A stretch of 64,000 nt of DNA from NCBI GenBank assembly GCA_964436255.1, contig CAYTBW010000004.1, positions 2,685 through 66,684 on the forward strand, given 5' to 3'. Made by a program: the position numbers and the translations under genes. This DNA comes from an uncultured Candidatus Saccharibacteria bacterium. Lineage in GTDB: Bacteria; Patescibacteriota; Saccharimonadia; CAILAD01; JADZBC01. The notes beneath the pieces were generated by a model, which saw only the letters and a list, made by a program, of their open reading frames with translations, did not search any database and was not told where the DNA came from. Positions 7,630 through 25,652 of this stretch are shown piece after piece. Positions within the stretch are counted from its first letter, which is position 1. Each line of letters opens with the position of its first letter.

Positions 7630-7668
7630 CGGATACCTGTAAAGCAACGCCTGCTTTGCGGCTATCCG
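7630..7668 (+). promoter_or_regulatory. imperfect ~15-bp stem-loop in the 5' leader of the 7725 ORF
   Basis: CGGATA (7630-7635) pairs with TATCCG (7663-7668). GTAAAGC (7639-7645) pairs with GCTTTGC (7653-7659). The loop is 7 nt and no U-tract follows. Confidence 0.45.
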
Positions 7669-7724
7669 TACTGGCCAAGAGTCTGCCAACGGAATTCACC
7701 CCAAAAGACTCACTTGGAGGGCCC

Positions 7725-8489
7725 ATGGCCATCACCGAAGACACCCAGTCCATCCTCGCGATCACCGCGACCGACACCGCCAAGGAGGCGATCATCATCG
7801 CCCTCGCGGGCGGTGTGCGGTTCCAGACCGTCGACGAGGCCCTGGCCTGGTCGGAGACGGCCCAGGCGGCCAAGTACCTGTTCGGCACCCACTCGAGCGC
7901 TGCGAGGAACCTCTTCCAGCTGCGCGAGCAGCTGAAGCGGGAGAAGTCGGCCCAGAGCGCCCTGGCGCGCCTGAACCGACTGTGGCTCAACGGCACCGTG
8001 CAGACGGCGCTGTGGAAGGCCTTCGTCCGCGAGGACATCCGCAAGGCCCTCGTGGCCGAGCTGAAGGAGGCCAGCCGCAAGGACATCGAGGCCCGCAACG
8101 CGGTCCTCGAGAAGGTCATTGCCCGGCTGGACGCCAAGGATGCCGAGGAGACCGAGAAGGAGGAGCTGATCGCCCAGATCAAGCCCCTCGTCGAGGACTC
8201 CTACTTCCTGAACGTCATCGTCGGCCGGGACAGCCTGCGACCCGACAGCCTGCGGGCGATCGACAAGATCATCGCCGGCAAGGGTGTGAGCGTCCACCTC
8301 GGGCAGCTGCGCGGCCTGGCCAAGCACCTCGGCAACATCCACCGCAGCTCCTCCGGGAGCGACGGTGGCCGCCGTGGCAAGGGCAAGGACCCGCGCAAGG
8401 CCGAGAAGGCGGCGCGTGACCGGGCGATCCGGGCACGGATGCACCAGCCCAAGGGCCAGGAACCGTCCAAGCACGGCAAGAAGAAGTAG
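7725..8489 (+). CDS. hypothetical protein (254 aa), helical with a lysine/arginine-rich C-terminal tail
   Basis: ATG at 7725 preceded by GGAGG (7716-7720). GC3 jumps to nearly 100% only after this ATG, so the track start at 7656 is rejected. The tail is GGRRGKGKDPRKAEKAARDRAIRARMHQPKGQEPSKHGKKK. No family recognised. Confidence 0.7.
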   Translation: MAITEDTQSILAITATDTAKEAIIIALAGGVRFQTVDEALAWSETAQAAKYLFGTHSSAARNLFQLREQLKREKSAQSALARLNRLWLNGTVQTALWKAFVREDIRKALVAELKEASRKDIEARNAVLEKVIARLDAKDAEETEKEELIAQIKPLVEDSYFLNVIVGRDSLRPDSLRAIDKIIAGKGVSVHLGQLRGLAKHLGNIHRSSSGSDGGRRGKGKDPRKAEKAARDRAIRARMHQPKGQEPSKHGKKK

Positions 8490-8630: not shown

Positions 8631-11447
8631 TTACGTAAGGAGCTTTTGTAAATATTGGCCGGTGTGGGATTTAACAACCTTTGCAACCTGTTCCGGGGTA
8701 CCTTCGGCAATGACTATGCCGCCGCCGCTTCCGCCTTCTGGGCCTAGATCGATCAGCCAATCAGCACACTTAACAACGTCCAGATTGTGCTCGATGATCA
8801 GCATGGAGTTCCCCATGGTCACGAGTGCGTTAAGCACTTCTAGAAGTTTCTTGACGTCTTCAAAGTGCAAGCCGGTGGTTGGCTCATCTAGAATGTAGAG
8901 CGTTCTACCAGTGGCTCGCTTGGAAAGTTCGCTCGCCAGCTTAATACGTTGCGCCTCCCCACCCGACAGCGTGGTGGCAGATTGTCCTAGGCGGATATAA
9001 CCAAGTCCTACACTGCGCAACGTCTCGAGCTTACGATACACTGCTGGAATATTACCAAAGAAATCACAAGCATCCTCCACGGTCATCTCCAAAACATCGG
9101 CAATAGTCCTGCCCTTATATAAAATCTCTAAAGCTTCACGGTTATAGCGCTTGCCATGGCACGTTTCGCAGGTTACGTACACGTCTGGCAAGAAGTGCAT
9201 TTCAATCTTGATAATCCCATCGCCCTTACACGTCTCGCAGCGGCCACCTTTTACATTAAAGCTAAACCGACCAGAGCTGTAGCCACGAATCTTGGCTTCC
9301 GGCACCATGGCAAATAAATCGCGGATATCGGTAAAGGCACCTGTATATGTTGCTGGGTTTGATCGCGGTGTACGGCCAATCGGAGACTGGTTAATGTCGA
9401 TTACTTTATCCAAGTGCTCGGTTCCTAGGATCTCCTGATGCTTGCCAGCTGGCTCCTGCGCTCGATGGTACTCCTGGCTTAGCTTGCGGGCCAATATATC
9501 ATTTATGAGTGATGACTTGCCAGATCCAGACACCCCAGTTACGACCGTCATGATGCCGAGAGGAATATCGACCGATACGTCTTTTAAGTTATTTTCTGTT
9601 GCACCGACAATCCGAAGTTTCTTATCGGTTGGCTTGCGGCGTTGTTTTGGCACCTCGATTTTCTTAGCACCGCTCAGGTACTGGCCCGTCAAAGACTCTT
9701 TGCTCTTAGCGACTTCATCTGGGGTGCCAATAGCTATGACCTCACCGCCATGCTCGCCGGCAAGTGGACCGATGTCAACTACAAAGTCACTCGCTCGAAT
9801 AGTGTCTTCGTCATGCTCGACTACAATTACCGTGTTGCCGAGGTCTCGTAAGCGCTGTAGCGTACTAATCAATCTATCGTTGTCGCGTTGATGCAGGCCA
9901 ATTGATGGCTCATCAAGAATATAGAGCACACCCATGAGGCTGGAGCCAATCTGCGTTGCCAAACGAATACGCTGCGCCTCACCGCCAGCCAAGGTGTTAG
10001 CGCTACGATTCAATGTTAGGTAATTGAGACCAACATCATTTAAGAACTTAAGCCGCTCGCTAATCTCTTTAAGGATTTGCGCGGCTATTTGCTTTTCCTG
10101 CGAGTTCAGCTCAAGCCCAGAGAAAGTCCTTAGCGCATCTTCGACCGACATGCTGGTAAGGTCGGCAATCGACTTACCGTTTACGGTAATGGCCAACACT
10201 TCAGGCTTAAGACGCTTGCCGTGACACTCCAGGCACTCTTGTGTCGTCATGTATCGCTCGATCTCTTTCTTCACAAAGTCACTATCACTCTCACGATAAC
10301 GGCGTTCCAAATTAGGAATAATACCTTCAAAGGTTGTTTTATACGTACGTCCGCCCGGCCCGCGCACGCCAATTTCTTCGTCCCCTGTTCCATACAGCAA
10401 AATCTCAATTTCTTTAGTACTCAGCTTTTCGACCGGCACATCAAGCTTGAACTTGTGCTTCTCTGCGACTGCTTCGAGCAATTTGGTATACCACGTCATG
10501 CGCGAAGTAGTGCGGCTCCATGGACGAATAGCGCCCTCGACGACGCTAAGGCGACGATTCGGAATGACCATGTCGGGGTCTACGATCAAAAGCGAGCCCA
10601 AGCCAGTGCATTTAGGACAAGCCCCATGTGGCGAGTTAAATGAAAACAGTCGAGGCTCAATTTCTGGGAGTGAGAACCCGGAATCTGCCGTAGTGTAATG
10701 CTCGCTAAACACGCGCTCGTCACCAGTATCATGATCCTGTATGGTGATTACGCCTTCGCCCAAATGCAGTGCCTGCTCAATAGACTCGACCAAGCGCTGC
10801 CCGGGTTCATCTGGGTCAAGTGTCATTCGATCAACCGCTACCTCGATGGTGTGCTTCTTCTGCCTATCGAGTTCCGGTACTTCATCAATTGGCATCAGAG
10901 TGCCATTTAGGCGTACTCGGGAATAGCCTGCCTTTTGGATTTCACTTAGCAGGTGCCTGTGTTCGCCTTTTTTGTCTTTTACAATCGGAGCGAGAATAAC
11001 AATCTTTGTACCTTTAGGATACTGGCGGACCGAGTCCACGATCTGTGCTGGAGTCTGCTTGGTTAGGACCTCGCCTGTCGTGGGGTCATGCGGCACACCG
11101 ATGCGCGCGAAAAGTAATCGCAAGTAGTCATAGATCTCCGTAACCGTGGCAACGGTTGAACGTGGGTTGCGTGAACTAGACTTTTGGTCGATCGAGATAG
11201 CCGGACTCAGACCATCAATCTGATCAACATCGGGCTTTTCCATCAGGCCAAGGAACTGCCTGGCATAGGCACTAAGGCTCTCTACATATCGGCGCTGGCC
11301 TTCGGCGTAGATAGTATCGAATGCAAGTGAGGATTTTCCGGAGCCGGAGAGACCCGTAATTACCACTAGTTTGTCGCGGGGTATTTCGAGGTCTATGTTT
11401 TTGAGGTTGTGCTCGCGAGCACCCTTAATGACGATTTTATCAGCCAT
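8631..11447 (-). CDS. uvrA: excinuclease ABC subunit A
   Basis: 938 aa. Two ABC ATPase modules ([26 protein letters not shown] twice) and zinc-finger cysteines ([18 protein letters not shown]). Confidence 0.97.
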
Positions 11448-23480: not shown

Positions 23481-23523
23481 ACTTAGGATAATACCAGATT
23501 AGATGGCAAAAAAAAAGCTCGGA

Positions 23524-23697
23524 TTAACCGAGCTTCATCTTGGTTTCGGTGAACACCTCTACCTTGCGAGTCGCCTTGTCGAATTTCTTTAGAGAAATCT
23601 TATCAGGGCTGTTTGTCTTGTTCTTGCGAGTAAAGTACAGTGAGCCCGTCTTTGGGTTCTTCAGTACAATCAACTCACGTGCGGTCTTCTTTGCCAT
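23524..23697 (-). CDS. rpmG: 50S ribosomal protein L33
   Basis: Below the track's size cut-off. Manual translation gives MAKKTARELIVLKNPKTGSLYFTRKNKTNSPDKISLKKFDKATRKVEVFTETKMKLG (57 aa). Confidence 0.85.
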   Translation of the reverse strand: MAKKTARELIVLKNPKTGSLYFTRKNKTNSPDKISLKKFDKATRKVEVFTETKMKLG

Positions 23698-23794
23698 TTG
23701 TTGTTTTCCTAATTACTAATACTAAACAATTGGTTGTTATTCTATCAGAAAAACCCTTTCCAATCAAGGCTTAGGGACTACAAGCTGCACATGC

Positions 23795-23823
23795 TTGCTC
23801 AATCACATGGTCAATTGTAAAAT
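23795..23823 (+). promoter_or_regulatory. sigma70-like promoter TTGCTC-17-TAAAAT, overlapped by the inverted repeat CAATT-gtaa-AATTG
   Basis: TTGCTC 23795-23800, TAAAAT 23818-23823. Pattern only. Confidence 0.45.
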
Positions 23824-23865
23824 TGCGAACAGTACCCTACATGATCCAGCGGAAAGGCCACGCTC

Positions 23866-24525
23866 GTGGACCCAATCATCATTACCATTGACGGCGGAGC
23901 AGCAACCGGCACGTCTTCGTTGGCCAAAGCCCTGTCGAAGCATCTCGGCATCCCCTATATGAACACAGGCGAGCTCTACCGTGGCGTCGCCTTTCTTGCC
24001 CGTCAGCAAGGCCTGGACTTCGACTCTCCGGCGGCGATGGCTGCCATCGCCGAGATGATTGAGTTCGAGTTCCACGACGGCACGGTCATCGCACTGAACG
24101 GTCAACCCGTCAGCCAGGAAGACCTGCGCTCCGTCAGCGACATTGTGGAGCGTGTGTCGCCGCACCCGGACGTACGGAAGCACATCCAGGGCTGGCAAAC
24201 CCGCTTTGCCCAGACCAACAACTGCGTACTCGAAGGACGCGACCTGGGCAGCACCGTCTTCCCGAACGCCGCGTTCAAAGTCTTCCTGACCTGCGAGGAC
24301 ACAGAGCGGGCCAAGCGACGGTCGAACCATGAAGGACGCGTGGTGACCGTTGATGAGATCTTGAAGCGAGATCGAGCCGACGCCGAGCGGGACCACTCGC
24401 CCATGGTCTGCCCCGCAGAAGCACATCGCTTCGATACCACCCATACGAGCACGCCTGAGCTCGTGGGGATGGTGGAACGGCTGCTCATCGACATGCCAGG
24501 CGTCTGGGATCGGCTGAACAGCTAG
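23866..24525 (+). CDS. cytidylate kinase-like protein with a degenerate P-loop (GC-rich segment B)
   Basis: GTG start. ITIDGGAATGTSSLAKAL aligns to Cmk ITIDGPSGAGKGT, but the Walker-A Lys is Thr. GRDLGSTVFPNAAFKVFLT and RDRADAERDHSP align to Cmk core motifs. Hand count gives 62 G+C in 24001-24100. Confidence 0.75.
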   Translation: MDPIIITIDGGAATGTSSLAKALSKHLGIPYMNTGELYRGVAFLARQQGLDFDSPAAMAAIAEMIEFEFHDGTVIALNGQPVSQEDLRSVSDIVERVSPHPDVRKHIQGWQTRFAQTNNCVLEGRDLGSTVFPNAAFKVFLTCEDTERAKRRSNHEGRVVTVDEILKRDRADAERDHSPMVCPAEAHRFDTTHTSTPELVGMVERLLIDMPGVWDRLNS

Positions 24526-24539
24526 CGCGCGTACGCCCC

Positions 24540-24582
24540 GAGGCCCCTGCTAAAGATCACCGTGATCTTCTGCAGGGGCCTC
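24540..24582 (+). terminator. nested GC hairpin GAGGCCCCTGC...GCAGGGGCCTC enclosing AAGATCAC/GTGATCTT
   Basis: Outer 11-bp arms 24540-24550 and 24572-24582 are complementary. It starts 15 nt after the stop. Confidence 0.65.
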
Positions 24583-24598
24583 CCTCATTTATTTAATC

Positions 24599-25402
24599 CT
24601 ATATATCTAGTTCAATACTAACTGGGCAATGATCTGAGCCCATTACTTCCGGGTGGATGTCGGCAGCCAATACTTTGTCCTTCAGTGAAGAAGAGACCAA
24701 GAAATAATCAATACGCCAGCCTACGTTGTTGGCCCGTGCACCACCCCAATGCGACCACCATGTATAGAAACCATTGCCCTGATAGAACAAGCGCAATGTA
24801 TCTACAAACCCAGCATCTATGAAATTCTGGAAGCCCTCACGCTCTTCATCCGTAAAGCCCTTCTTGCCAATGTTTGGCTTTGGGCGAGCTAGGTCCTCTT
24901 CGGTATGCGCCACATTCAAATCCCCACAAAATACAACTGGCTTGGTCTTTTCTAGCTCCTGGCAATAATCCAAGAACGCCGGATCCCAATGCTTGTGCCT
25001 AAGTGGGATGCGAGACAGATCATCCTTAGCGTTCGGTGTATAAACTGTCACCAAGTAGAAGTCTTCGTACTCAGCTGTCATCACCCGGCCCTCCGCATTT
25101 GGATCCCCATACTGGTCCGCCATGTCATACTTAGCAATGATTGCTTCGGGTAGTCCATTAACAACACTCAGTGGATCGGTCTTTGAAAAGATTGCGGTAC
25201 CAGAGTAGCCAGGTCTCTCAGCAGAATTCCAGTGTTCATTATAGTCAGGTAAGTCAATCTCTACTTGCTCTCGCTTGGCCTTCGTTTCTTGCAAGCAAAG
25301 GATGTCCGGGGTGTTTTCTTCGATGAAAGGCATGAACGCGTCTTTGCGCAGCACGGCCCTAATCCCGTTCACGTTCCAAGAGAATATCTTGAGCCTAGCC
25401 AT
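24599..25402 (-). CDS. xth: exodeoxyribonuclease III
   Basis: [13 protein letters not shown] start and the ...GSDHCPV C-terminal motif. The track start is 5 codons longer. Confidence 0.9.
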
Positions 25403-25652
25403 GTAGAGCACCCTCACTTATCAAAAGGTCTCGTTTCTTCTCTCTCCCACGGTTGTATTCGCCTGCTTTGCCGTCGGCTCGAATCACTCGATGACAGGGA
25501 ATATTCGGGTCATAGTTCTGGCTCAATATCGTACCAACCGCGCGTGCTGCCCCTGGACTACCAGCAGCCTTGGCGACGTCACCGTACGTCATGACCATGC
25601 CCTTCGGTATTTGACGCACCACTTCATAAACTTTGTCTCTAAATTCAGGCAT
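25395..25652 (-). CDS. MGMT-family protein (methylated-DNA-protein-cysteine methyltransferase DNA-binding domain only)
   Basis: 85 aa with a PCHRV active-site motif. Confidence 0.8.

Follow-up and report, generated by a model that had tools for sequence, protein, structure and literature searches.

The 64,000-nt stretch of Candidatus Saccharibacteria DNA analysed here (hereafter the window) carries, between the genes for ribosomal protein L33 (rpmG) and exodeoxyribonuclease III (xth), a gene for a homologue of cytidylate kinase (Cmk) in whose phosphate-binding loop threonine stands at the position of the Walker-A lysine (Table 1). It is the sole plus-strand gene in a minus-strand run that comprises genes for GAPDH, a thioredoxin-like protein, VKOR, DsbA, rpmG, the cmk-like gene itself, xth, a gene for an 85-aa MGMT-type protein, and proS. 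The loss of the lysine is shared by a large clade, and we favour the reading that the gene encodes a nucleotide-binding derivative of Cmk with impaired or altered phosphotransfer.

Table 1. Features of the cmk-like locus and its frame (positions are those of the window)
Feature	Position	Strand	Evidence or remark
Lysine-less Cmk homologue, type A	23866-24525	+	PF02224, TIGR00017, AlphaFold (AF2) model and Foldseek, dN/dS 0.12, GC 0.615, GC3 0.763
Phosphate-binding loop G10-G-A-A-T-G-T16-S17	23893-23916	+	Thr16 (ACG, 23911-23913) at the Walker-A Lys position
Promoter-like element	23795-23823	+	-35 TTGCTC (23795-23800), 17-nt spacer, -10 TAAAAT (23818-23823); sequence and conservation
5-bp dyad CAATT-gtaa-AATTG over the -10 hexamer	23812-23825		In the window only; orthologues read CACTGTAGAATG or GATTGTAGAATG
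Nested GC-rich hairpin between the convergent cmk-like gene and xth	24540-24582		-36.7 kcal/mol, z = -6.0 to -6.6
rpmG (ribosomal protein L33), left frame of the slot	23527-23700	-	PF00471 in orthologous loci; own divergent promoter 23739-23767
xth (exodeoxyribonuclease III), right frame of the slot	24599-25417	-	PF03372 (7.6e-31); 73-93% identical across Saccharibacteria

The gene product has the fold of a bacterial cytidylate kinase

The open reading frame (ORF) is present as called, with a GTG start and a product of 219 aa. A first-pass annotation of this DNA had aligned it by eye with Cmk along its length, and the family PF02224 (Cytidylate_kin) indeed covers the protein end to end (3.6e-45, 154.7 bits at a cutoff of 26). 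The score against the cmk equivalog model TIGR00017 was only marginally over the cutoff (140.6 versus 135.55 bits), and the related types described below scored under it (type A2: 115, type B: 87, type C: 85 bits). Searching the PDB with HMMER returned bacterial Cmks as the closest solved relatives (E = 1e-24 to 1e-17), with mycobacterial enzymes as the top matches. An alignment-based AlphaFold model reached a predicted local distance difference test score (pLDDT) of 94.2 and a predicted template-modelling score (pTM) of 0.89, and Foldseek superposed it on the CMP complex of Mycobacterium abscessus Cmk (4die), on 3r20 and on the CDP complex of the Escherichia coli enzyme (2cmk) with a TM score of 0.84 and a root mean square deviation of 2.3-2.6 Å. 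The model contains the long nucleoside monophosphate (NMP) kinase fold, consisting of the core, the NMP-binding insert and the LID. For type B, the model still has the Cmk fold (pLDDT 85.9), with confidence dropping at the P-loop and at the EGRAGAW segment.

Comparison of the window gene with its orthologue in L001, the least saturated pair, gave a ratio of non-synonymous to synonymous substitution rates (dN/dS) of 0.12, indicating that the gene is under purifying selection.

Threonine occupies the position of the Walker-A lysine

HMMER aligned the segment DGGAATGTSS of the window protein on DGPSGTGKSS of solved Cmks, and the MAFFT register agrees. In the AlphaFold model, helix 1 follows immediately on strand 5-10 and begins with Thr16, at the site where a Walker lysine normally sits. 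The loop, GGAATGTS, does not match the Walker-A motif GxxxxGK[ST]; normal GK[ST] motifs are present in UvrA, UvrB, an ABC ATPase, SMC and Obg in the window. The first-pass annotation had read the invariant lysine as threonine, and this holds: an alignment placing a lysine in the loop was looked for, and neither HMMER nor MAFFT gave one. Its second remark, that the second glycine is alanine, is true but carries no weight, as many canonical Cmks read DGPAASGKS. Depending on the lineage, the threonine codon is ACG, ACC or ACT. A single base change (ACG to AAG) would restore lysine, which is nevertheless absent from all members of the sampled Thr-type subgroups.

The residues that surround the loop were compared with those of the characterised enzymes. 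In Yersinia and E. coli Cmk, R41 and R131 bind the phosphate, S36, R110 and D132 bind cytosine, and Y40 stacks on the base; D185 and R188 contact CDP, as do S36, R41 and D132, and the mutants R110A, R131A and R188A are inactive, the last one tested in the Yersinia enzyme (PMC3603445). The equivalents of S36, Y40, R41, R110, R131, D132, D185 and R188 in the window protein are T34, Y38, R39, R104, R125, D126, D172 and R175, so that the proposed retention of the NMP-site motifs is confirmed residue by residue. The LID arginines (ERAxRR; R148, R151 and R152) are present as well and invariant in type A, and have been partly lost in types B, C and others. Within the P-loop, G10, G15 and S17 are kept and are invariant throughout the clade.

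A compensating basic residue was sought across the alignment columns, and no clade-specific gain of lysine or arginine was found. Six positions at which 108 canonical Cmks are 100% identical (D126, R148, R152, D169, R175 and P179) vary within the lysine-less clade, and besides the lysine, sister types lack the residues equivalent to D132, R154 and R188.

The lysine-less state extends across a clade

A first database search returned eleven relatives at 95-43% identity, all with the loop IDG(G/A)A(A/G)TGTS, before similarity fell off sharply to ordinary Cmks; the closest canonical relatives are 36-40% identical to the window protein and taxonomically mixed. Surveying loci anchored on xth, searching with a profile and searching 1.84 billion representatives exhaustively yielded further types. 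Altogether, at least 27 protein clusters have Thr or Gly at the lysine site, and more than 300 other Cmks have Lys (184 + 136 proteins, the 136 including three with a second loop-like match). Threonine is found in types A, A2, B (loop DGGGGTGTSS), P0327, P0328/330, P0332, P0335/336 and P0356, and glycine in type C (DGGAGVGGST). The types additional to A, A2, B and C are P0324, 326, 327, 328, 330, 332, 335, 336, 356 and 458. A metagenome scan with one back-translated clade pattern was dominated by ordinary cmk (Lys in 79 of 80 loci) and contributed a single new T-loop locus, L015. Taken together, these searches indicate that the lysine-less state is clade-wide and not a private mutation.

With the P-loop columns masked, neighbour-joining placed 27 of 28 lysine-less sequences in one clade, together with three Lys-bearing members. 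Its members share derived features that are rare in canonical Cmk, namely Gly11, Thr14, Asn33, Val74, Cys143 and Met180, and a segment after the LID from which about six residues are deleted. P0458 (T-loop, DGGEATGTS) falls outside this clade and groups with P0418, a Lys-bearing Cmk named Candidatus Paceibacterota, which suggests an independent loss of the lysine in another lineage of Patescibacteria. Two further proteins, P0325 (454 aa) and P0349 (332 aa), each carry two tandem Cmk domains with intact lysines.

The gene occupies a conserved cmk slot

The order rpmG(-)/cmk-like(+)/xth(-) recurs with types A, A2, B and P0327. Synteny was observed in L001, L005, L006, L008, L010, L012 and L097 and persists down to 37-45% protein identity. 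In the related genome L094/L095 the same slot holds P0331, which has the lysine (DGPNSTGKS) together with the marker residues of the clade. Because of this occupant, the lysine-less genes are positional orthologues of a Lys-bearing cmk, and the slot is the lineage's own cmk locus. A second cmk was found neither in the 64-kb window nor on any related contig examined.

The neighbours xth and the MGMT-type gene (25395-25652, minus strand) were identified correctly in the first-pass annotation. The 85-aa MGMT-type protein consists solely of the MGMT DNA-binding/active-site domain (PF01035) with the PCHR motif; its gene and the start of xth share 23 nt, and related loci keep the two genes together. 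Upstream of the slot, two small ORFs (about 84 and 219-235 aa) lie between DsbA and rpmG in the three genomes of the more distant group described below (L006 8622-9580, L008 8603-9564, L094 6678-7588). A second recurring context was seen in L015 (702-2761) and L096 (6474-8699), where T-loop cmk-like genes (P0328/330-like and P0335) stand directly downstream of a Mur ligase gene. The type C gene (L013 8001-8636) lies outside the rpmG-xth slot and adjoins a CYTH-domain gene, near an AAA_28 P-loop gene and TrmB-family regulators.

Alleles in the slot do not follow their flanks

Grouping the genomes by seven flanking proteins yielded one group with the window, L001, L005, L010, L012 and L097 (identity 0.71-0.87) and a second one with L094, L006 and L008 (0.69-0.81), with 0.55-0.60 between the groups. 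Among the six genomes of the first group, the identity of the cmk-like protein ranged from 0.30 to 0.86 and did not track the flanks. The pair closest by flanks, L001 and L097 (0.87 amino acid identity), shares only 0.39 in the cmk-like protein, while L010 and L012 are 0.76 identical in the flanks and 0.86 in the cmk-like protein. Types A and B, which occur in the same genome group (flanks ~0.80), are 0.30-0.34 identical, and type A is closer to type A2 of the other genome group (0.42-0.48 at a flank identity of ~0.57). In DNA, the identity between L010 and L012 is 0.86 for the gene, 0.83 for the promoter spacer and 0.57-0.77 for each of the flanking genes. An early impression, gained from too few loci, that the gene had diverged as much as its neighbours was overturned by this wider flank comparison.

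Synonymous sites were compared by the share of identical residues that also use the same codon, controlled for the codon usage of each gene. The same-codon fraction was 0.70 for the type B pair L010-L012 (0.45 expected at saturation, z = 6.8) and 0.56 for the window and L001 (0.45 expected, z = 3.0). The flanking genes were mostly saturated (z = -0.2 to 1.4), the exception being ProRS in L010-L012 (z = 2.7). Since the synonymous sites of the alleles are unsaturated and those of the flanks mostly saturated, the alleles were shared more recently than the genomes diverged. The coding unit in the slot has been exchanged between related Saccharibacteria within a conserved rpmG-xth frame. The earlier description of the gene as horizontally acquired is thus right in part: the gene in the slot disagrees with its flanks and has been exchanged, but it is not a foreign insertion, as the slot is the cmk slot with a Lys-bearing orthologue.

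The gene also differs in composition. Its GC content is 0.615, compared with 0.498 for the rest of the window, and the GC content at third codon positions (GC3, 0.763) is the highest of 59 window ORFs, about 4 standard deviations over their mean (0.531, standard deviation 0.057), in full agreement with the earlier label of a GC-rich ORF. Over their own contigs, eight lysine-less loci showed a mean GC excess of +0.093 and 56 canonical cmk loci, drawn as a control from 79 Lys-bearing metagenome loci, one of +0.026; the Mann-Whitney p value of 2e-7 overstates the significance because orthologues are not independent. There was no excess for the T-loop type P0327 (+0.013) or the Lys-bearing P0329 (+0.016), and only a small one for the Lys-bearing P0331 (+0.035 to +0.05). 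The simplest idea for the excess would be that the alleles circulate in a GC-richer gene pool. The only other sharp GC-rich island in the window (0.69 versus ~0.50) is a 277-aa ORF at 7656-8489 on the plus strand, which has no Pfam family and adjoins uvrA (8631-11447); it may be another compositionally foreign gene.

Promoter-like and terminator-like elements are conserved with the frame

The promoter-like element upstream of the gene lies under the threshold of a consensus scan, as its -35 hexamer matches at three of six positions. Nevertheless, TTGC and TA(A/G)(A/G)AT are kept at equal spacing in the orthologous loci of types A and B, so that the proposal of an own promoter gains support from the conservation of the hexamers and not from the scan. 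The dyad noted over this promoter is present in the window, but an operator role is unsupported: it is absent from the orthologues and probably a chance occurrence. Back to back with the promoter lies the conserved minus-strand promoter of rpmG (TTGATT-17-TAGAAT), and a bidirectional terminator-like hairpin (23514-23536) was found between DsbA and rpmG.

The nested hairpin downstream of the gene, described earlier with stems of 11 + 8 bp, is real. Its stems are 11 + 7 bp as RNA; the inner 8 bp hold for the DNA dyad. The outer stem GAGGCCCC/GGGGCCTC is conserved in loci of both type A and type B, and the hairpin is likely the shared terminator of the cmk-like gene and xth and the right edge of the variable unit. 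Promoter hexamers and outer terminator stem are kept with the frame, whichever gene type lies between them.

An antisense ORF over most of the gene (23803-24444, minus strand, 213 aa) was rejected as a gene, as the frame contains 0-7 stops in orthologues. Being codon-aligned with the sense frame, it rests only on the absence of TTA, CTA and TCA and is probably a by-product of the GC3-rich codon use.

Impaired phosphotransfer and its alternatives

Our best reading, to which we assign a probability of roughly 0.55, is that of a saccharibacterial cmk locus encoding a nucleotide-binding derivative of Cmk, in which the change from Lys to Thr16 has impaired or altered phosphotransfer and which is exchanged between species. 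The pocket would still bind (d)CMP or CDP, and the backbone of the P-loop would hold a phosphate-bearing ligand in the donor site. Without the lysine that stabilises the transferring phosphate, the standard phosphoryl transfer from ATP to CMP should not be possible, and the protein would either have kept a strongly attenuated kinase activity or have become a nucleotide-binding pseudo-kinase in another role. In having lost a catalytic P-loop residue while its fold is kept under selection, the window protein resembles the non-catalytic proteins of the NMP-kinase fold. The turnover of alleles suggests a changed role under fluctuating selection. An altered or lost kinase activity is favoured over full compensation because the sampled Thr-type subgroups contain no lysine although it is one base change away, the site tolerates glycine, a substitute basic residue is missing and sister types have lost further essential residues. 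The first-pass annotation had already proposed a CMP binder with impaired kinase activity; the clade-wide Thr or Gly, the missing substitute and the erosion in sister types fit this proposal, and the conservation within type A speaks against it.

Several observations weigh against this reading. In type A, all catalytic residues apart from the lysine are kept without variation, the LID arginines in contact with the donor phosphates among them. Retention of these arginines and of the P-loop glycines leaves room for residual or non-canonical catalysis and would be expected if phosphoryl transfer still matters. It may also be that a genome of ~1 Mb has no cmk homologue besides this gene, and an activity would then more likely be retained. 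Composition and lysine loss are not strictly linked, since the T-loop type P0327 shows no GC excess. Furthermore, the bootstrap for the lysine-less clade is weak (32/100, neighbour-joining), and for this reason its common origin is argued from the shared derived residues rather than from the tree.

The invariance of all other catalytic and binding residues in type A is also the strength of the view that the protein is a working (d)CMP kinase, in which the LID arginines or an arrangement of water and metal compensate for the lysine, or in which a slower enzyme suffices for a slow-growing, ultra-small epibiont. The low dN/dS, the invariant G10, G15 and S17, the occupied ancestral slot with no second cmk on the window or related contigs, and the score over the TIGR00017 cutoff are all in line with it, and kinases such as WNG1 are reportedly active without an 'invariant' motif. 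We nevertheless consider it rather unlikely, although worth keeping in mind: all of the more than 300 other Cmks retrieved have the lysine, no basic residue that could compensate for it is seen, the single-base reversion is unused in the sampled Thr-type subgroups at a site that tolerates glycine, the sister types lack even the equivalents of D132, R154 and R188, the last of which is required in the Yersinia enzyme as judged from R188A, and exchange between species is atypical of a housekeeping enzyme. A more speculative proposal, which we regard as doubtful, is a repurposed (d)CMP/CDP binder that is no longer a metabolic kinase and takes part in a conflict of the epibionts with phages or with their bacterial host, for example as a sequestering agent or sensor of cytidine nucleotides or as a decoy for factors that exploit Cmk. 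If true, it would explain the swaps of the whole unit in a fixed promoter-terminator frame and the kept atypical composition.

Phages might also act as the selecting agent in a simpler way: those that need the host Cmk for dCTP would select a crippled or altered enzyme, and its alleles would then spread by recombination. Y. pestis that has lost cmk function is partly resistant to phage, independently of adsorption, and the susceptibility of E. coli to T7 is lower in cmk mutants (PMC10254400). Yersinia survives without cmk (PMC3603445). The exchanged alleles, incongruent with their flanks, would suit such a scenario. This support comes from Y. pestis and E. coli and none of it directly from Saccharibacteria, a simple deletion would give the same resistance although here the frame is kept under purifying selection, and the protein belongs to no PADLOC or PHROG family (PADLOC defence models gave marginal matches only, VakA at E = 2.4e-3 for the window protein and pVip-kinase at E = 4.6e-4 for P0327; PHROG families gave no match to the window protein), which leaves the scenario improbable. 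That the gene was recently inserted from outside Saccharibacteria, with no relation to the native cmk and with a GC-rich donor such as an actinobacterial host, is suggested at first sight by the sharp GC island, the lone plus-strand orientation and the mycobacterial Cmks among the best PDB matches. It is very improbable, given that the slot is filled alike in genomes with flanks only 55-60% identical, that promoter and terminator are conserved with the frame, that the protein has the derived residues of the clade (G11, N33, C143, M180 and the short LID), and that its canonical relatives are only 36-40% identical and taxonomically mixed. The absence of an invariant lysine could finally point to a decaying pseudogene or a sequencing or assembly artefact; an intact frame, a confident structure model, a dN/dS of 0.12 and the same loop in independent NCBI, ENA, JGI and Logan assemblies effectively refute this.

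Few catalytic residues in biology are as conserved as the Walker-A lysine. A large clade of a housekeeping NMP kinase that is kept by selection without it, with the rest of the active site retained, would be either a natural experiment in phosphoryl transfer without lysine or a bacterial pseudo-kinase that arose from core nucleotide metabolism. Databases annotate the lysine-less proteins as cytidylate kinase or '(d)CMP kinase', and because of these labels metabolic reconstructions of Saccharibacteria may credit an activity that is absent, which bears on how the epibionts obtain CTP and dCTP. An exchangeable cassette in a stable housekeeping neighbourhood is unusual in itself and points to a selection that has not been described for cmk.

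Comparison with known systems

In the literature searched, we found no description of a lysine-less Cmk, of a saccharibacterial cmk or of such an exchange of cmk. The cmk mutants selected by phages in Y. pestis and in E. coli with T7 show that cells tolerate, and can even profit from, a lost or reduced Cmk activity; they are laboratory frameshifts and deletions, whereas the window gene is a conserved full-length variant under selection (PMC10254400). In a study of Cmk and mRNA decay in E. coli, the effects depended on catalysis only. With the bacterial Cmks of E. coli (1KDO/2CMK), M. abscessus (4DIE) and Thermus thermophilus (3AKC), the window protein has in common the fold including the long NMP-binding insert, the residues of the CMP pocket and the LID, and the genomic role as the cmk locus of the lineage. 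It differs from them by Thr, Gly, Asn, Cys and Met in place of the Walker-A Lys, Pro11, Asp33, Ala143 and Leu180, and by a segment after the LID that is about six residues shorter; in addition, the gene is GC-rich and exchanged between species.

Some kinases, among them WNK and WNG1, reportedly stay active although an 'invariant' motif is missing; in WNK, its role is said to be taken over by a lysine of another strand. They resemble the clade described here in that a conserved catalytic element is not found where it usually stands, throughout a clade under selection. They are protein kinases of an unrelated fold, however, and a substitute basic residue of the WNK kind is not visible in the lysine-less Cmks. 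A second parallel, which we offer as a lead only, concerns the sulfotransferases that depend on 3'-phosphoadenosine 5'-phosphosulfate (PAPS). These relatives of P-loop kinases bind the 5'-phosphosulfate with a loop PKxGTT and have Thr at the Walker lysine position, so that G-T-T in place of G-K-S/T is common to both; the sulfotransferases keep a lysine three residues upstream and have another acceptor domain, whereas the loop of the window protein is entirely free of lysine. The guanylate-kinase-like domains of MAGUK proteins have an NMP-kinase fold that has lost the catalytic P-loop and is kept for non-catalytic binding. These domains are eukaryotic and part of multidomain proteins, with the nucleotide site remodelled into a phosphopeptide site, whereas the window protein stands alone and its CMP site is seemingly intact.

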